Part shown: positions 1,894 to 30,046 of the stretch, one piece after another
Layout: each line of letters opens with the position of its first letter
Numbering within the stretch: the stretch's first letter is position 1
DNA from: a virus
Taxonomy: Duplodnaviria > Heunggongvirae > Uroviricota > Caudoviricetes
Strand: one strand, 5' to 3'
Virus record (IMG/VR): IMGVR_UViG_2585427747_000002
Span: 1 to 33,552 of that record
Length of the DNA stretch: 33,552 bases
Translations under genes and position numbers: made by a program
The notes under the pieces: generated by a model
Databases searched by the model: none
Seen by the model: the letters and a program-made list of their open reading frames with translations, nothing else
What the model was told of the DNA's origin: nothing

Positions 1894-4451
1894 CGTCCAC
1901 CTCCGGAGAACAGGCCACCATCACGCATCTGTGTCTGAATTTCATCACGGGCACCCTTGCGGGCCATGTCATACACCGCCTTCAGAGCAGCCGGACCTAT
2001 CTGACCGTTCGTGCCGTCGTTATTAATCACCACATGGTTATTCTGCTCAAACTTACCGGACGCCTGCGACCGGCTGTCAGCCAGACTGCCCGGTGTACCG
2101 ACATAACCACCGGTGGCATAGCCGCGCATCAGCCGGTAGAGATTTCCCACGCCAATCCGGCTGGTTGCCTCCTTCGTGAAGACAAATTCACCACGGTGAA
2201 CAATCCCCGCTGGCTCATATTTGCCGCCGGTTCCCGTAAATCCTCCGGTTGCAAAATGGAATTTCGCCGCAGCGGCCTGAATGGCTGTACCGCCTGACGC
2301 GGATGTGCCGCCACCAACAGCCCCGCCAATGGCGCTGCCGATACTCCCGACAATCCCCACCATTGCCTGCTTAAGCAGAATTTCTGTCATCATGGACAGC
2401 ACGGAACGGGTGAAGCTGCGCCAGTTCTGCTCACTGCCGGTCAGCATCGCCGCCATATTCTGTGCAATACCATCAAAGGTCTGCGTGGCTGCACTTTTTA
2501 CCTGCGACATACTGTCCGTGGCGCTCTCTTCCCACTCACTCCAGCCGGACTTCAGGCCTGCCATCCAGCTCCCGCGAAGCTGGTCTTCAGCCGCCCAGGT
2601 CTTTTTCTGCTCTGACATGACGTTATTCAGCGCCAGCGAATTATCGCCATACTGTTCCTTCAGGCGCTGTTCTGTGGCTTCCCGCGCTGCCTGCCGGTCA
2701 GTAAGCCCCCGGTTTTTCGCATCAATGGCTGCCCGTTTTGCCCGTTGTTGCTGTGCGAACTTATCCGCCTGCTGCGCCAGCGCATTCAGGTGCTCCTGAT
2801 ACGTGACCTTATCGCCAAGTACAGCCAGCTGGCGTTTGTACTCCAGCGTCTCATCTTTATGCGCCAGCAGGGATTTCTCCTGTGCGGACAGCTGGCGACG
2901 TTGTGCCGCCTCCTCCAGTACCGCGAACTGATTTTCCGCCTTCCACAAATCCCGGCGCTGCTGGCTGATTTTCTCATTCGCTCCGGCATGCTTCTCCAGC
3001 GTCCGGAGTTCTGCCTGAAGCGTCAGCAGGGCAGCATGAGCATTGTCTTCCTGACGATCGCCCGCAGACACCTTCACGCCGGACTGTTTCGGCTTTTTCA
3101 GCGTCGCTTCATAATCCTTTTTCGCCGCCGCCATCAGCGTGTTGTAATCTGCCTGCAGGATTTTCCCGTCTTTCAGTGCCTTGTTCAGTTCTTCCTGACG
3201 GGCGGTATATTTCTCCAGCGGCGTCTGCAGCCGTTCGTAAGCCTTCTGCGCCTCTTCGGTATATTTCAGCCGTGACGCTTCGGTATCGCTCTGCTGCTGC
3301 GCATTTTTGTCCTGTTGACTCTGCTGTTCAGCCTTCTTTCGGGCGGCTTCAAGCGCAAGACGGGCCTTTTCACGATCATCCCAGTAACGCGCCCGCGCTT
3401 CATCGTTAACAAAATAATCATCCTTACGCAGATTCCAGATATCGTCCGCTTTCTTAAACGCGGCCTCTGCCTTAATCAGCATCTCCTGAGCGGTATCAGG
3501 GCGACCAATATCCAGCACCGCATCCCACATGGATTTGAATGCCCGTGCTGTCCTGTCTGCCCAGGTTTCCAGCGTGCCCATGTTCTCTTTCAGGCGTCGG
3601 GTCTGGTCATCAAACCCTTTCGTTGCGGCCTCGTTCGCCGCCTGCAATGCCCCGGCTTCATCGCCGGAACGCTGCAACTGAGCAACATACGCAATCTGCT
3701 CCGCCGTCACGTTATGGAACTGGCGCGCCATCGCTGTCAGCCCTGACGTCGGGTCTGTGGTCAGCTTCCCGAAGGCTTCAGCGACCTTGTCCACCTCCAC
3801 GCCGGATGCAGAGGAGAAACGCGCCACACTCTGGCTGATGGACGCAATCTGAGCCTCACCGCTTACCCCCGCCTTAACCAGTGCGCTGAGTGACTCGCTG
3901 GTCTGGTTAAACGTCAGCCCTGCCGCCCGCCCTGCTCTGGACAGGACCAGCATACGATCTGCCGTCAGACCCGACTGATTGCCGGAAAGGACCAGCGTTT
4001 TGTTGAAATCGGACAGGGTTGAGTTGCCCTGATACCAGGCATACGCCAGCGCACCGGTCGCCACCGCCAGCGAGGTGGCCCCGACCATCGGCAGGGTGAT
4101 CGCACCGGCAAGCCCCCTGAACATGGGGATCATCCCGCCGAAGGAGTCCTTCACCTGACCACCCTGTTGCAGCAGGATCAGCCACGGACTTTGCCCGCCT
4201 GCAAGCTGCGTGGCCACGTCGGTGAACTGCGCAGGCAGCATACGCATGGCGGCTTTATACTGCCCGACGGAAATCCCCGCTTTCTGTGCAGCCAGCGCCT
4301 GCCGGTTCATTGACTGTTCAACGACTGCCGCTGTTTTTTTCGCATCAGTTTCCGTACCGGAAAAATGACGCCTGACTCTGGCCATCTGCTCGTCAAATCT
4401 GGCCGCATCCAGACTTAAATCAACGACCAGATCGCCTACCGGTTCAGCCAT
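1890..4451 (-). CDS. H: Tail tape measure protein H
   Basis: 853 aa, MAEPVGDLVVDLSLDAARFDEQ..., matches lambda gpH in length and sequence as recalled. Confidence 0.95.
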   Translation of the reverse strand: MAEPVGDLVVDLSLDAARFDEQMARVRRHFSGTETDAKKTAAVVEQSMNRQALAAQKAGISVGQYKAAMRMLPAQFTDVATQLAGGQSPWLILLQQGGQVKDSFGGMIPMFRGLAGAITLPMVGATSLAVATGALAYAWYQGNSTLSDFNKTLVLSGNQSGLTADRMLVLSRAGRAAGLTFNQTSESLSALVKAGVSGEAQIASISQSVARFSSASGVEVDKVAEAFGKLTTDPTSGLTAMARQFHNVTAEQIAYVAQLQRSGDEAGALQAANEAATKGFDDQTRRLKENMGTLETWADRTARAFKSMWDAVLDIGRPDTAQEMLIKAEAAFKKADDIWNLRKDDYFVNDEARARYWDDREKARLALEAARKKAEQQSQQDKNAQQQSDTEASRLKYTEEAQKAYERLQTPLEKYTARQEELNKALKDGKILQADYNTLMAAAKKDYEATLKKPKQSGVKVSAGDRQEDNAHAALLTLQAELRTLEKHAGANEKISQQRRDLWKAENQFAVLEEAAQRRQLSAQEKSLLAHKDETLEYKRQLAVLGDKVTYQEHLNALAQQADKFAQQQRAKRAAIDAKNRGLTDRQAAREATEQRLKEQYGDNSLALNNVMSEQKKTWAAEDQLRGSWMAGLKSGWSEWEESATDSMSQVKSAATQTFDGIAQNMAAMLTGSEQNWRSFTRSVLSMMTEILLKQAMVGIVGSIGSAIGGAVGGGTSASGGTAIQAAAAKFHFATGGFTGTGGKYEPAGIVHRGEFVFTKEATSRIGVGNLYRLMRGYATGGYVGTPGSLADSRSQASGKFEQNNHVVINNDGTNGQIGPAALKAVYDMARKGARDEIQTQMRDGGLFSGGGR

Positions 4452-4878
4452 ACCGGGCTCCTCCTGCGATCCCTTCTGATACTGTCATCAGCATTACGTC
4501 ATCCTCCGTCATGTCCGCCACATCCGGGAAATCGGGGATAACTTCATTCCCGTCCGGGCCAAAACGAACGCCTCCGGCAAGCCCTGCCGCTTTCTGCATC
4601 AGCACATCATCTTCAGGCTCTTCGTCATCCTCACGCCGGTTCAGCAGACTGAAATCCAGCGGATGCATATCCGGATCGCTGAAAAACAGGCTGAGCACGG
4701 TGTACGTCAGCCCGGAAAAGTGCATATCCAGCAGAACATCATGAAAATAATGGGTACTGTAAAAGCGGTGCCAGTCGGCATACTCCGTGGATGACATCCC
4801 GGCAAGCATGGCGCGCCAGTCGGGTCGCCCCATCTCACGCGCCAGTTTCAGGGCAAAACTCAGCTCACCGTCGAACAC
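4444..4878 (-). CDS. T: Tail assembly chaperone T frame, expressed only as G-T fusion by -1 frameshift
   Basis: ORF (..FDGELSFALKLAREMGRPDW..) in -1 frame relative to G; slippery G_GGA_AAG on the minus strand at 4878-4884 at the 3' end of G, as in lambda. Confidence 0.9.
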   Translation of the reverse strand: MFDGELSFALKLAREMGRPDWRAMLAGMSSTEYADWHRFYSTHYFHDVLLDMHFSGLTYTVLSLFFSDPDMHPLDFSLLNRREDDEEPEDDVLMQKAAGLAGGVRFGPDGNEVIPDFPDVADMTEDDVMLMTVSEGIAGGARYG

Positions 4879-5273
4879 TTTCCCGCAGAAACAGGCTCTG
4901 CAGGCCCGGCGTCATCTGCCTGTTCAGGGGCATTATTCACCACAAACTCATACATACCGGACAGCCGGTACACCACGTTTTCAGCATGAGAAATTGCCTC
5001 TGTGGGCCAGGTGGTAAGCACTTCCTGCTCAATCTGTTTAACGGCTTCATTCATGGACGGCATCTGCGTCTTCTTCGGATGGTTATGCCACAGGGACATC
5101 GCCACCACAAAAGCGCCGGTTCTGATGACGTCTTCCACAGTAAACTTCCGGTTGCTGTCGGATTCTGCCTGCTGTTTCATCAGGGTGAGATGCTCAATAC
5201 GCTGCAGGGCTGACAGTTCAGAAAGCGTGACAGTCACGCCGTTATATTCAAATGATTCGGTTTTCAGGAACAT
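4860..5273 (-). CDS. G: Tail assembly chaperone G
   Basis: 137 aa, MFLKTESFEYNGVTVTLSELSALQRIEHL..., lambda gpG-like; ends ...AGKCSTVS with the slippery site in its last codons. Confidence 0.93.
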   Translation of the reverse strand: MFLKTESFEYNGVTVTLSELSALQRIEHLTLMKQQAESDSNRKFTVEDVIRTGAFVVAMSLWHNHPKKTQMPSMNEAVKQIEQEVLTTWPTEAISHAENVVYRLSGMYEFVVNNAPEQADDAGPAEPVSAGKCSTVS

Positions 5274-24402: not shown

Positions 24403-24506
24403 AACAACCTCCGTGGTTAATTTGAATCAAGATTAAAACTATGGTTGTTTTTAGTCAACAACCATTTTCGTTTGATGGAATAAAACCTTGGTTGTACATT
24501 TGAACT
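24403..24506. promoter_or_regulatory. Immunity control region: OR operators with divergent pR (toward cro) and pRM-like promoter (toward cI)
   Basis: Minus strand TTGACT-17 nt-TAATCT upstream of cro; plus strand TTGATG-17-TACATT ending 7 nt before the cI ATG (leaderless-type); palindrome ATGGTTGTT-N7-AACAACCAT overlaps the pR -35. Confidence 0.7.
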
Positions 24507-25196
24507 ATGAAAACAACACTCTCAGAAAGACTTAAAGAAGCCAGATTAGCGCGAGGCCTTACACAAAAGGCGCTTGGGGATTTGGTCGGGGTTAGCCAAG
24601 CTGCTATTCAGAAAATCGAAACAGGGAAAGCTAATCAAACAACTAAAATCGTGGAGATCGCGAACGCTTTGGGTGTGCGCGCAGAATGGTTATCTTCTGG
24701 CGTTGGAAATATGTCAGACAGTACAGTGCAACCAATACAACCAACTGTCAGCCATTCCAAATACTTTAAGATTGACGTTCTTGATATAGAAGTGAGTGCC
24801 GGGCCGGGTGTCATCAACCGTGAGTTTGTAGAAGTTCTACGTTCGGTTGAGTATTCGTTTGACGATGCTCGTCACATGTTCGATGGCAGGAAGGCGGAAA
24901 ATATCCGCATCATTAACGTACGCGGTGACAGCATGTCAGGAACGATTGAACCTGGTGATCTGCTGTTCGTTGATATCACGGTTAAATCTTTCGACGGTGA
25001 TGGTATCTATGCGTTTCTGTACGACGACACAGCCCATGTAAAGCGCCTGCAAATGATGAAGGATAAGCTGCTGGTTATCTCTGATAACAAGAGCTACTCA
25101 CCGTGGGACCCGATCGAGAAAGACGAGATGAACCGGGTGTTCATCTTCGGTAAGGTTATTGGGAGCATGCCCCAGACGTACAGGAAACATGGATAA
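24507..25196 (+). CDS. cI: CI repressor (N-terminal HTH, C-terminal LexA/S24-type autocleavage domain)
   Basis: 229 aa, MKTTLSERLKEARLARGLTQKALGDLVGVSQAAIQKIETGK... and C-terminal ...NVRGDSMSGTIEPGDLLFVD...AHVKRLQ... (Ser/Lys dyad context); not lambda immunity specificity. Confidence 0.9.
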   Translation: MKTTLSERLKEARLARGLTQKALGDLVGVSQAAIQKIETGKANQTTKIVEIANALGVRAEWLSSGVGNMSDSTVQPIQPTVSHSKYFKIDVLDIEVSAGPGVINREFVEVLRSVEYSFDDARHMFDGRKAENIRIINVRGDSMSGTIEPGDLLFVDITVKSFDGDGIYAFLYDDTAHVKRLQMMKDKLLVISDNKSYSPWDPIEKDEMNRVFIFGKVIGSMPQTYRKHG

Positions 25197-25262
25197 TCAG
25201 TACTGTGCTGATGAGTCGTTTAGGGGATAGTAAATTTAATTAGAATTAGACGAGAGCGATTT

Positions 25263-26126
25263 ATGGATTGTGACGCTTTACAGGATATAAAAATCTCTCT
25301 TAGGTATGACGGAAAAGATGCTTTAAATCATGAAATAGATTTGAACTGCCTAGGAGAATCCCTAAAGGGTTTTTCTAAAGTTCTCTCAACAGCAGCTTCT
25401 TTCTCTGTTACACAAAAATATAGTAAATACATTAATTATCAGGAAGTTAAGGTTTACGCACGCGAAGCAAAAGCTAACTGCTTTACTCTTGAAGCAGTTC
25501 TTAACTTCGCCACTCAGAACCAGTTGTTCTCGGGGATCGCCGCAACTATACTTGGCGCAATACTACAATATATTTTTGCGAGAAATTCTAACAAGAAAGA
25601 TGAAATGAAAGCTTTGCAGCAGTCACTTGAAAAGGCCATAGAGGCACTAGGAAACAAGGATGCTGGAACCATTGATAAGTTGATCTCTTTGATTGACCGA
25701 ATGGCTGTAGAGCTTCGCCCCTCTGTAAGGCAGGCAGTATCACCTATTGGTAATACTTGCGATCAGATAAGTGTTGCAACAAATGTTGACGGCTGCCTTC
25801 TAAAAGTTAACGAGAGAGATAAAGCTGAAATTGATAGGCTTGATGATGATGAAGTTCTCGGTCTTCGTGAGTATCGTGCTTTTCTTACAGAATTTGATGC
25901 ACAAAATATGACAGCTAAAATAATTTTAGATGGTGATGACTCAAAAAAGAGAATCACTGCTGAAATTAGCGATCCAGCTGCAGGAAAGAAGAATAACCCG
26001 TATATTAGAGCTCTTAGTGCATATATATCAACCAAAGGTGATCCATCTGCAGTATTCACTATAACCGCAAAGGCTACTGTTAAAAAAGGCCAGATAAACA
26101 GGTTATTTATTGTAGATGCGAAATGA
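25263..26126 (+). CDS. Hypothetical protein (287 aa), AT-rich, in the rexAB position downstream of cI
   Basis: [31 protein letters not shown]... with one central hydrophobic segment ([19 protein letters not shown]); gagag SD; followed by an intrinsic terminator; no family recognised. Confidence 0.7.
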
Positions 26127-26129
26127 TTT

Positions 26130-26157
26130 CCCCGGCCGTCGTGCCGGGTTTTCTTTT
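26130..26157 (+). terminator. Intrinsic terminator after the cI-operon cargo gene
   Basis: CCCGGC-cgtcgt-GCCGGG followed by TTTTCTTTT, 4 nt after the stop codon. Confidence 0.8.
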
Positions 26158-26284
26158 GCCTCCCCTCATCACACAAACCGTTCAAAAAACCACCACGACC
26201 TCGCTTCAGTTATCGCTGTGCGATGCAAGTCACAAAATAAATCCATCCTAAATACAACCATTTACATCTAAAAAAACCAATAAA

Positions 26285-26326
26285 ACAACTTTTGTTGTTG
26301 ACGACAAAACAACTATAGTTTTAAAT
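26285..26326 (+). promoter_or_regulatory. pL-like promoter with OL operators
   Basis: TTGACG (26298-26303)-17 nt-TTAAAT, or alternatively TTGTTG-16-TATAGT; palindromes CAACTTTTGTTG (26285-26296) and GTTGTT-N8-AACAAC (26294-26313) share half-sites with OR. Confidence 0.6.
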
Positions 26327-26519
26327 AAATTCATCGCAACAACACAACGATACGGCAACCACCTGATTCACCGTTGCGATGACCGCTTAGATCCGCAGCT
26401 TGAATTTCAGCAGGCTCCGGGAAGTGCGAGGGGTGAAGCGGACGCGTGAACGTCGGTGTGACCAGCTGAAATCAACACAACACTTTATACCTCAGTCGCT
26501 TCAACGAGGCGGCTTAGTT

Positions 26520-26810
26520 ATGACAACCGGCGGCCATCCACCGCCTGAATACGCGCAGAAGTCTCTATATGTTCAGCAGCCCAGCTTACGGGCAGGAGTT
26601 TTTATGGTTCATCAACATTACGGAACGCAGACCGTTAATCGCGGTGCGGTCATGCCAGGAATGCTGGTCAAACACAAAGATGGTACCTGGACTGCATCAG
26701 CTAATTTACGCGGACGGCTTTATCTGCATCGCGGCATCGAGCGCACTTATACCCGTGACTTGCTCGTGGAAGTTTTTCTCGACGGGCGCGGCAACGGTCT
26801 GAATCACTAA
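26520..26810 (+). CDS. Hypothetical protein (96 aa) between pL and gam; start uncertain (alternative TTG at 26400 gives 136 aa with an Arg-rich N-terminus)
   Basis: ATG at 26520 with GAGG 11 nt upstream; the track ORF starts at a TTG at 26400 and would add RLREVRGVKRTRERR. No family recognised. Confidence 0.45.
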   Translation: MTTGGHPPPEYAQKSLYVQQPSLRAGVFMVHQHYGTQTVNRGAVMPGMLVKHKDGTWTASANLRGRLYLHRGIERTYTRDLLVEVFLDGRGNGLNH

Positions 26811-26885
26811 TCCCCTTTCCTGTTTACCTAATCAGCCTGGCATTTCGCGGGCGATATTTTCACAGCCATTTTCAGGAGTTCAGCC

Positions 26886-28650: not shown

Positions 28651-28805
28651 CGCATCCTCACGATAATATCCGGGTAGGCGCGATCACTTTCGTCTACTCC
28701 GTTACAAAGCGAGGCTGGGTATTTCCCGGGCTTTCTGTTATCCGAAATCCGCTGAAAGCCCAGCGGCTGGCTGAGGAGATAAATAATAAACGGGAGGCGG
28801 TATGA
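28647..28805 (+). CDS. Small hypothetical protein (52 aa), translationally coupled between exo and the PAPS-reductase gene
   Basis: Sub-60-aa ORF missing from the track: [52 protein letters not shown]; ATGA overlaps at both ends. Confidence 0.45.
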
Positions 28806-30046
28806 ACGAGGCAGCAATAATTATTGTCCCAACAGACATCAGCAAGAAAATTCGCGAAATAGAAGAGTCCTACAACAGATATATAAATGAATTTCGCATC
28901 CCTAATGATCATAAGATAATCGTGAATTATTCAGCAGGAAAAGACAGCACTGCCACACTCGCAGTGGCGCACACATTATTCGGCAAACAGGTACATGCTG
29001 TTATGGCAGACACGGATAATGAGCATAATCTAACTGTCGAATTCGCCAGGAGCATTCATGAGCAGATCGGTTGTAGCCCTGTGCAGGTTGTGAAGCGGAT
29101 TTACACTGAAGAAGATTTTACCAAACGACGAATTTATCTGCAAAAAAACTGGTCTAAACGACAGATGATCCGCATGGGAGCATACCGTGGCATAGTCATG
29201 CCTTCCCTCGCACGTTCTGACACCAAATTCGGGCAAGCCTGGAAGCGCACAGCAGAACGCTGGGGAATTGAGTTCGAAACTGCTCTTGATGCTGCGCTTT
29301 CCGTTATGCACCCATCCGGTAATAGCTTTTTGGATTGCTCCCTTCTGCATGGCAAGTTCCCTATGCTGCGCGACCGATTCTGTACAGACGAACTGAAAAT
29401 TCAGATAGCTTTCGACGCAGCCATAAAGCCGCTCCTTGATGCTGGCGATGTTATCGTACAATGGTCTGGTGTTCGCGCGGATGAGTCCTCTAAGCGCGCT
29501 GGATATGAGAGGTTTTCCCGCGATATGCGCGACGCCGATTTTCTCTACAACTTCCTGCCGCTCCACAAATGGACGGCTGAGGACGTATTCGCAGTTCACA
29601 AATATTTCGGAATTAAGCCAAATCCACTTTATATGCAAGGTGCGTCTCGTGTTGGCTGCATGAATTGCGTGCTATGCAACAAAGAGGAAATTGCAGAGAC
29701 GGCTGCGCGCTGGCCAGAGCACATCAAAAAGCACAAACAATGGGAGTTGAAGGTACGCCTTGCTAGTAGATGGGTACACTGGATGAGCGTAGGAGAGATA
29801 AGCCAACGCTGGATGAAACAGTTCAATCTGCCACTTGGTCGAAATATTCAACTTTTTGGGCTAAAACCTGATGTGCAACACATCGACTGGTCAGGATTTT
29901 ATGGTCCTCGTGGAGATCTTAATTCTCCGGGTGTTTATGAAGTCGTAGAGTGGGCAAAAACAGGGCGCGGTGGCAAGGTCTACGATCTTGTAAAAGCAAG
30001 TCTCGATATAGAGGTTTGCTCTTCACGCTACGGTCTGTGCGAATAA
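28802..30046 (+). CDS. PAPS-reductase-family protein (PP-loop ATP pyrophosphatase fold; IbrA/DndC-like)
   Basis: 414 aa with PP-loop motif (…NYSAGKDSTATL… near residue 43); length and architecture resemble prophage IbrA as recalled. No ParB-like partner gene follows. Confidence 0.7.
   Translation: MNEAAIIIVPTDISKKIREIEESYNRYINEFRIPNDHKIIVNYSAGKDSTATLAVAHTLFGKQVHAVMADTDNEHNLTVEFARSIHEQIGCSPVQVVKRIYTEEDFTKRRIYLQKNWSKRQMIRMGAYRGIVMPSLARSDTKFGQAWKRTAERWGIEFETALDAALSVMHPSGNSFLDCSLLHGKFPMLRDRFCTDELKIQIAFDAAIKPLLDAGDVIVQWSGVRADESSKRAGYERFSRDMRDADFLYNFLPLHKWTAEDVFAVHKYFGIKPNPLYMQGASRVGCMNCVLCNKEEIAETAARWPEHIKKHKQWELKVRLASRWVHWMSVGEISQRWMKQFNLPLGRNIQLFGLKPDVQHIDWSGFYGPRGDLNSPGVYEVVEWAKTGRGGKVYDLVKASLDIEVCSSRYGLCE

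Follow-up and report, generated by a model that had tools for sequence, protein, structure and literature searches.

A phi80 gp40A-family gene in the exchangeable slot downstream of a phage repressor, a candidate exclusion determinant of lysogens

The gene directly downstream of the cI-like lysogeny repressor in the phage genome considered here encodes a 287-aa protein of the phi80 gp40A family (DUF7946 plus DUF7947; PHROG 5147), and it is a horizontally acquired, mobile accessory ('moron') gene. The window, by which we mean the whole stretch of DNA that was analysed, comprises 33,552 nucleotides of a virus of the class Caudoviricetes (IMG/VR record IMGVR_UViG_2585427747_000002). Judged by its genomic context, the gene is a candidate for a lysogen-expressed role in exclusion of, or defence against, other phages, a reading to which we give about an even chance. 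The context evidence for this candidate is unusually coherent, and it comes from the organization of the immunity region, the exchange of cargo between sibling phages, the distribution of the family and the genes that accompany its members elsewhere.

In the window, the minus strand upstream of cI carries P-like, O-like, cII/YdaT-like and cro/YdaS-like genes, and then follow, in this order on the plus strand, cI, the 287-aa ORF, oL/pL-like operators and gam-bet-exo. The local gene map is the lambda map read leftward. The features that matter for the argument are these:

Positions 24403 to 24506, unstranded: divergent intergenic region between the YdaS-type cro (minus strand) and cI (plus strand), the equivalent of oR and pR/pRM, with ACAAC/GTTGT half-sites.
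Positions 24507 to 25196, plus strand: cI-like lysogeny repressor of 229 aa with HTH_3 and Peptidase_S24 domains (Pfam, PHROG).
Positions 25198 to 26130, plus strand: exchangeable cargo cassette in the cI operon, made up of a 65-nt leader and the ORF (homology breakpoints with sibling phages).
Positions 25263 to 26126, plus strand: phi80 gp40A family protein of 287 aa with DUF7946 and DUF7947 (ORF, Pfam, PHROG, phi80 homology, dN/dS).
Positions 25293 to 25835, plus strand: DUF7946 domain, aa 11-191, predicted as a three-stranded sheet, a long helix and a helical bundle (Pfam, secondary structure of the model).
Positions 25524 to 25580, plus strand: hydrophobic helix at aa 88-106, conserved and with many small residues (Kyte-Doolittle hydropathy, family alignment, model).
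Positions 25863 to 26123, plus strand: DUF7947 domain, aa 201-287, predicted core of the C-terminal OB-fold beta-barrel (Pfam, fold match).
Positions 26131 to 26157, plus strand: intrinsic terminator of the cI operon, a hairpin with a T-run, a backbone element common to sibling phages.
Positions 26250 to 26335, unstranded: oL/pL-like region with an AACAAC-TTTT-GTTGTT palindrome and more ACAAC half-sites (operator k-mers shared with oR).

The product of cI matches HTH_3 (5.5e-13) and Peptidase_S24 (1.2e-18) in Pfam as well as PHROG 4, transcriptional repressor (8e-73), and RefSeq labels the identical cI gene 'S24 family peptidase' and the ORF after it a DUF7946 protein. An inverted repeat, ATGGTTGTT...AACAACCAT, lies inside the cro/cI intergenic region, and this oR region (24403-24506) has k-mers in common with the oL region (about 26250-26335), including the recurring ACAAC/GTTGT half-sites. 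By analogy with the phi80 annotation, pR and pRM would be placed within 24403-24506, and a putative pL has a -35 hexamer TTGACG at 26298-26303 and a -10 hexamer TTAAAT at 26321-26326, both read by eye rather than called by a scan. The layout cI-ORF-oL/pL agrees with the phi80 annotation cI-40A-oL/pL. Because operator half-sites occur in both intergenic regions and the gene map is arranged as described, the ORF lies within the immunity region, in the slot equivalent to that of rexAB. An earlier note, made from the letters of the sequence, had assigned the gene to the rexAB position, and the gene order from cro, cII, O and P through to gam-bet-exo bears this out.

The ORF itself is present at 25263-26126 on the plus strand, starting 66 nt after the cI stop codon (25196), which is the arrangement that the earlier note had described. 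Translation can plausibly start only at ATG 25263, given an in-frame stop at 25221 and TTG 25341 as the next candidate start. The claimed AT-richness also holds: the ORF has a GC content of 0.384 and a GC3 of 0.295 relative to neighbours of about 0.5, with values of 0.467 and 0.50 for cI and of 0.50-0.52 and 0.55-0.63 for gam, bet and exo. The Shine-Dalgarno sequence ascribed to the gene stands in part, in that SD-like pairing to the anti-SD is found at -3.0 kcal/mol, but it is weak: gam, bet and exo reach about -7, and the background mean is -2.2. Comparison with homologs about 90% identical gave a dN of 0.05 and a dS of 0.9, and the resulting dN/dS of about 0.05 identifies the ORF as a real gene under strong purifying selection. 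A 140-aa antisense ORF (25763-26185, minus strand) is taken as spurious, given the plus-strand conservation and this ratio.

The sibling phages Turner, PhiR34_1, PhiR26_1 and PhiR30_1 have cI and pL flanks that are 91-97% identical to those in the window and lack the ORF. In pairwise alignments, homology to Turner, PhiR26_1 and PhiR30_1 stops at 25195-25197, the cI stop codon, and restarts at 26131, where the terminator stem begins; the terminator is therefore a backbone element with which the cI operon ends in all these phages, and what is exchanged is the segment 25198-26130. The stem-loop at 26131-26148 pairs CCCGGC with GCCGGG through six G-C pairs around a 6-nt loop and is followed by TTTTCTTTT, and the RNA around it folds at -18.9 kcal/mol (z = -3.0). 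The clean terminator noticed behind the gene is thus an intrinsic terminator indeed, at 26131-26157, but it belongs to the backbone rather than to the ORF. The contents of the slot differ from sibling to sibling: 122 bp without a gene in Turner, a gene for a 126-aa BamE-like lipoprotein in PhiR26_1, and in PhiR30_1 two genes that match the two-gene defence candidate PDC-M63A plus PDC-M63B of PADLOC (E 8e-36 and 4e-42). Since siblings with the same cI and pL flanks hold nothing, a lipoprotein gene or PDC-M63, the slot is a cargo hotspot, and the suggestion that the gene occupies a hotspot for exclusion cargo is to that extent confirmed locally. A scan of the 66-nt gap between cI and the ORF found neither a terminator nor a promoter; the simplest reading is thus that the ORF is transcribed together with cI, and the gene would hence be expressed in lysogens.

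Assignment to the family comes from several resources. Pfam DUF7946 matches aa 11-191 (E 3.8e-55, 187.2 bits against a gathering cut-off of 27, model positions 1-183 of 183), DUF7947 follows C-terminal to it at aa 201-287 (E 1.4e-18, 67.1 bits, gathering cut-off 27), and PHROG 5147, which is annotated without function, is matched over positions 1-287 of 287 (E 1.5e-178). A tblastn search against phage records found 'protein 40A' of phage phi80 at 62% identity over 99% of the length (E 2e-114). These matches refute the view, held in the earlier note, that the gene is an orphan with no recognizable family. The phi80 gene appears in X13065, the 1988 early-region record, where it is split into 40A and 40B, and as YP_007947967 in NC_021190; the label 'acetate kinase superfamily domain' attached to the phi80 40A record has no Pfam support here. 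The laboratory strains DH5alpha, DH10B, TOP10, NEB 5-alpha, NEB 10-beta, JM83, XL10-Gold and EPI300 all have the phi80 cI-40A-oL region in intact form, at 100% identity. An intact 40A beside cI is present in phi80 lysogens and in the phi80dlacZdeltaM15 remnant of DH5alpha, DH10B and TOP10.

At the 50%-identity level, an exhaustive profile search resolved the family into 495 clusters, of which nearly all have members of 270-300 aa, and conservation over the full length persists at identities as low as about 20% across hundreds of clusters. Among 107 divergent members, all have DUF7946 and 105 have DUF7947 too. Homologs occur in Klebsiella, Enterobacter, Serratia, Proteus, Morganella, Mannheimia, Neisseria, Vitreoscilla and a Burkholderiaceae MAG, and the family spans Gamma- and Betaproteobacteria; in almost every host, the family gene is AT-richer than its flanks. 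The gene is carried by 77 of 5426 complete E. coli genomes at a query coverage of at least 80%, nearly always with at least 99% identity, and these 77 are the only ones to reach that coverage among 1682 E. coli genomes matching the query, which consisted of the ORF and short flanks. Frameshifts, truncations or an IS1 insertion have broken a few copies, and such occasional disruption fits a dispensable, possibly costly gene. The identical protein is found on at least 1000 public contigs under the names 'hypothetical' or 'DUF7946 domain-containing', and no informative name was found among the family members, including those from a second homolog search with the divergent alignment.

The searched literature contains no paper that names the DUF7946/DUF7947 family or its identifiers (PF25678/PF25679, phrog_5147, WP_000340376, A0A0H0RBL4, YP_007947967), nothing on phi80 gene 40A together with a function, and no paper on PDC-S42, a family discussed below. 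In the Tai tail-assembly-interference paper, phi80 is mentioned frequently and gene 40A is absent. As the family is already in the databases and a record of its phi80 member exists from 1988, the protein represents a known, uncharacterised kind rather than a new one.

Linkage to a repressor is the family's most conserved feature. We surveyed 98 loci with a family ORF, drawn from genomes, IMG/VR contigs and annotated records, and 84 of them have a co-oriented HTH or S24 repressor ORF no more than 700 bp upstream; at a further four, a repressor is found upstream with one or two small genes in between, which brings the total to 88. The repressors form 31 clusters at 90% identity and 16 at 50% identity, hence at least 16 types by sequence, and some of them are short (127-141 aa), HTH-only and without the S24 GDSM motif. 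The linkage occurs in four different Morganella prophages and is kept for a family member that is only 36% identical. The Vitreoscilla locus has the order Cro, S24 repressor, DUF7946 gene and then a SIR2 protein matching PDC-S25 (2e-142), and at one locus a Tlde1-domain toxin occurs in the same slot as the family gene. Outside repressor contexts, the family gene adjoins AbiD in Serratia (E 5e-55) or has a PNP-superfamily effector nearby; elsewhere its neighbours are a transposase and an integrase, or it is located terminally in an element with a D5_N primase.

Structure prediction and fold searching, which the earlier note had proposed as a check, gave a result for one half of the protein. A first model, built from a 25-sequence alignment, had a pLDDT of 78.9 overall and of only 52-59 for residues 50-100, and a better AlphaFold model based on the 107 divergent sequences reached a pLDDT of 93.1 and a pTM of 0.81, with all five models above 91. 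In this model, the protein is soluble, compact and two-part, with a C-terminal OB fold. The modelled N-terminal part comprises a strand at 9-16, a long helix at 27-50, strands at 62-66 and 75-82, and helices at 87-108, which holds the hydrophobic segment, 112-128, 134-150 and 152-158; residues 168-286 form the beta-rich C-terminal part. Two methods agree that the C-terminal module is a small closed beta-barrel of five strands that superposes on known OB folds, and the lookalikes include the ssDNA/RNA binders IF1, CspA, RPA and SSB. The N-terminal domain found no significant match in the fold search with the first, poorer model, and because the fold searches used that model, in which residues 50-100 are at a pLDDT of 52-59, an N-terminal match may have been missed. 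A BFVD fold search, likewise with the first model, returned three uncharacterised phage proteins of similar overall build, and two family profiles searched against PDB sequences gave no match with an E-value below 0.01.

Conservation among the 107 divergent members is concentrated at a few sites. The N-terminal motif (R/K)-Y-(D/E)-G..A..H...L..S..G spans aa 14-36, with G17 at 96%, H23 at 82%, S33 at 93% and G36 at 97%, and a second site is formed by P161-x-G163-x-x-C166. Conserved residues of the OB domain are K219, R230, D237 (99%), P238, N245, Y247 (98%) and K270. No strictly invariant set of catalytic residues was found among these members, and a catalytic Cys/Ser-His site is unsupported, given that H23 is conserved in 82%, position 73 is C or S, and C166 is present in 76% with A in 19%. 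No signal peptide was found in the 287-aa protein.

The single central hydrophobic segment that had been noticed in the translation is real and lies at aa 88-106. Its Kyte-Doolittle value of 1.85 exceeds the classical threshold of 1.6, yet the Hessa sum of +1.6 (family median +3.9) is marginal for a membrane segment. A hydrophobic segment occurs at the same position in 86% of the 107 members, is rich in Gly, Ala and Ser and has a K/R-rich C-terminal flank. The helix at 87-108 is modelled at a pLDDT of 92-97 and is packed inside the compact fold (pTM 0.81). The marginal insertion score and the packing in the compact model together make a constitutive membrane anchor unlikely. A latent, colicin-like insertion helix is possible but speculative.

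The reading of the gene as a defence determinant is favoured by the known occupants of the repressor-downstream slot (RexAB and BstA), the parallels in Gifsy prophages, the PDC-M63 cargo of a sibling phage, the defence-type neighbours of family genes and the similarity to PDC-S42. The argument is one from association, and cargo expressed in lysogens can also serve other purposes; both points count against it. If the reading is right, the cassette would be transcribed with the repressor in lysogens and its protein would protect the lysogen, and hence the prophage, from other phages. The predicted OB fold would bind a ligand derived from infection, most plausibly a nucleic acid given the conserved Lys, Arg, Tyr and Asn residues, and binding would switch the conserved N-terminal module to an effector state. 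That state might act by stoichiometric interference with the invading phage, or the buried hydrophobic helix might be released into the membrane in a colicin-like manner and cause abortive infection; since the helix is marginal and packed, this membrane-effector step is weak. Any specific version of a mechanism with an OB-fold sensor and an N-terminal effector is unlikely to be correct in its details. The more general proposal, that DUF7946-DUF7947 is a single-protein anti-phage system expressed from the repressor operon, with an OB-type sensor and an N-terminal exclusion or abortive-infection effector, and that its phi80 copy already shapes the phage sensitivity of laboratory E. coli, is a tentative one that we place somewhat below an even chance.

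Other functions have to be weighed against this defence role. The tight linkage to the repressor gene, which holds for 16 or more repressor types in several classes of bacteria, would also suit an accessory lysis-lysogeny regulator that tunes induction or repressor stability, e.g. through ssDNA binding or interference with RecA-stimulated cleavage, with no action on foreign phages, and an OB fold like that of IF1, CspA, RPA and SSB would be appropriate for such a protein. We nevertheless regard a regulator as improbable: siblings with a cI 95-97% identical at the DNA level have no such gene or carry unrelated cargo, so that it is dispensable for the switch, and the gene is also found behind the short repressors of 127-141 aa without the S24 GDSM motif and outside repressor contexts altogether (beside AbiD, a transposase/integrase or a primase element). 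A lysogenic-conversion gene with a host benefit unrelated to phages, such as stress tolerance, envelope properties or virulence, is likewise a poor prospect, as the protein has no signal peptide and a compact, cytoplasmic-type modelled fold, and as its neighbours and the genes that share the slot are mostly of defence or toxin types. The hosts moreover have very different lifestyles (enterics, Pasteurellaceae, Neisseriales, Burkholderiaceae), which speaks for action on phages more than for a function tied to one niche.

Phage-directed action could also take the form of constitutive superinfection exclusion at the inner membrane, of the type of SieA, Imm or HK97 gp15, with aa 88-106 as an anchor of a protein that blocks DNA entry. 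Membrane exclusion proteins are common lysogen-expressed cargo, and the position of the segment, kept in 86% of members, and its positively charged C-terminal flank would agree with such a role. The segment is single and marginal (Hessa +1.6; family median +3.9), however, there is no signal sequence that would serve the 87-residue N-terminal part, and the model buries the helix in a compact globule (pTM 0.81, pLDDT 92-97), which together make this form of exclusion very unlikely. The possibility that the ORF is spurious or a decaying, functionless remnant could draw on the few frameshifted, truncated or IS1-interrupted copies and on the weak SD, but it is effectively refuted by a dN/dS of about 0.05, full-length conservation to about 20% identity and a confidently predicted fold. 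The preferred reading is accordingly still that of a lysogen-expressed exclusion or defence gene, at the strength given at the outset.

The slot downstream of the repressor has already yielded RexAB and BstA, and the gp40A family is a widespread occupant of it, on record since the 1988 phi80 sequence and with no function found in the searched literature. If its members are defence proteins, they would constitute a new single-gene family with an OB-fold sensor, and the phi80 member would already be shaping the phage sensitivity of the most widely used laboratory E. coli. Should the gene prove to regulate the switch or to serve host fitness, that finding would still explain a strikingly conserved linkage. 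The candidate is unusually easy to test, with intact phi80 copies available in laboratory strains and sibling phages with an empty slot or other cargo as natural controls.

In the comparison with known systems, PADLOC gave no match to a validated defence family. Its only match was the single-gene candidate PDC-S42 (E 1.5e-4, 19.3 bits, aa 9-127 against positions 4-113 of 302), with which the protein shares a similar length (the model has 302 positions) and a weak similarity over the N-terminal 110-120 residues, and which is matched by 27 of the 107 family members (best E 3.2e-8). At 19 bits, over part of the protein and with the C-terminal half unmatched, PDC-S42 is a remote sister family at most, and the PDC families are unvalidated candidates, as the term is used in PMC11514479. 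The NCBIfam model LAPAL_fam (NF053583) reached 26.2 bits against a cut-off of 60, over the N-terminal 111 residues only, and was rejected as an assignment.

A looser analogy leads to the CBASS effector Cap15 and to colicins, in that a small C-terminal barrel (as predicted) and a conserved hydrophobic helix are combined in one polypeptide. Cap15-type defence proteins join a small beta-barrel ligand sensor to a membrane-active part, and colicins contain a buried hydrophobic helix. No homology to Cap15 or colicins was detected, no upstream signalling enzyme is present here, and the model predicts no membrane insertion.

The slot between cI and oL/pL is the one that rexA and rexB occupy in lambda, where they are co-transcribed with cI from pRM in lysogens, and the expression logic is presumably the same. 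RexAB excludes T4 rII mutants, with membrane depolarisation, and RexB is the multi-pass membrane partner. The cassette described here differs in consisting of a single gene whose product has one marginal hydrophobic helix, whereas RexAB consists of two genes with a multi-pass RexB, and homology is ruled out by hhalign probabilities of 0.2% for RexA and 0.1% for RexB. BstA, of which the N-terminal part is a KilA-N-type DNA-binding domain, shares no domains with the protein, for which Pfam finds only DUF7946 and DUF7947 and PADLOC finds no BstA match. The likeness to BstA of Salmonella phage BTP1 and its relatives is one of arrangement, a single gene for about 300 aa behind the repressor; BstA is a proven abortive-infection protein encoded by a single gene directly downstream of the prophage repressor in diverse Gram-negative prophages (PMC8585504). 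GiPD474 and remAIN offer further parallels for the slot in the immunity regions of Gifsy prophages (PMC12724215); GiPD474 of Gifsy-1 is an unrelated ATPase and serves as a precedent for the slot only.

The closest comparison remains phi80 40A itself. The gene in the window is another allele, with another cI and another operator set and a DNA identity of only about 68%, and it has the same Pfam architecture and the same slot as its phi80 counterpart, where the order is pRM, cI, 40A, oL/pL, nutL and N.

The complete cI-40A-oL segment of phi80 (positions 3154-5260 of the phi80 genome, NC_021190) is present at 100% identity in common cloning strains of E. coli (genome matches H49-H88), including DH5alpha, DH10B, TOP10, NEB 5-alpha, NEB 10-beta, JM83, XL10-Gold, EPI300 and HST04, and these strains therefore carry a member of the family in a lysogen-expressed position. 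The two phi80 records describe this member differently. The 1988 entry for the early region (X13065, 3624-4253) has two genes in the same frame, 40A with 209 aa and 40B with 95 aa, whereas protein 40A of the 2012 genome (4001-4867) is one protein of 288 aa, and the tblastn match to X13065 falls into two pieces. This pattern suggests that X13065 differs in sequence by a change of the frameshift type. Pfam does not support the label 'acetate kinase superfamily domain' that the phi80 genome record gives to protein 40A.

Other cargo is found in repressor operons. The slot between cI and the terminator of the sibling phage PhiR30_1 (3082-4436) holds a two-gene cassette with PADLOC matches to PDC-M63A (DUF6932, E 8e-36) and PDC-M63B (E 4e-42), which on the strength of these matches is a candidate system carried in the repressor operon. 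In an Erwinia sp. locus (L015, 4188-4933), a protein with a Tlde1 domain (E 1.4e-29), an L,D-transpeptidase-type toxin domain, and a 71-aa hydrophobic ORF are flanked by an S24 repressor on one side and a DUF7946 gene on the other; the two look like a toxin-immunity pair sharing the repressor operon.

Members approximately 50% identical and without a nearby repressor occur at three loci, L002 (BK070131, labelled a Helicobacter pametensis prophage), L093 and L095, where the gene order is large genes, family member and KilA-N gene, and the GC content of the members is 0.45-0.49. This context is unlike that of the repressor-linked majority of the family. Frameshifted or truncated copies, otherwise 94-100% identical, were found among loci L057, L058, L064, L090 and L100, and in one E. 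coli genome (H48, NZ_CP128594) an IS1 insertion lies in or adjoins the family gene. The disrupted copies could mean that the gene, being dispensable or costly, is inactivated now and then; alternatively, they could be assembly errors.

Downstream of the pL-like region, no N-type antiterminator was recognisable in the stretch up to gam (26340-26885), and a 136-aa ORF within it (26400-26810) had no Pfam match. A small Kil/cell-division-inhibitor gene is annotated for this stretch by RefSeq and in sibling phages. Directly 3' of exo lies a further gene:

28802-30046, + strand: PAPS-reductase/PP-loop protein, 414 aa (Pfam PF01507, 7e-21)

Its PADLOC matches are partial, namely to SspD (5.7e-19), BrxP (3.9e-16) and DndC, and GC content around it falls to approximately 0.42-0.45. 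This gene could be a second accessory one, located in the pL operon and related to DNA modification or defence.

At the cI start, anti-SD pairing is nearly absent (-2.6 kcal/mol, 24487-24506, upstream of cI). The lambda cI message from pRM is leaderless or weakly initiated, and the apparently weak cI start found here recalls that arrangement.
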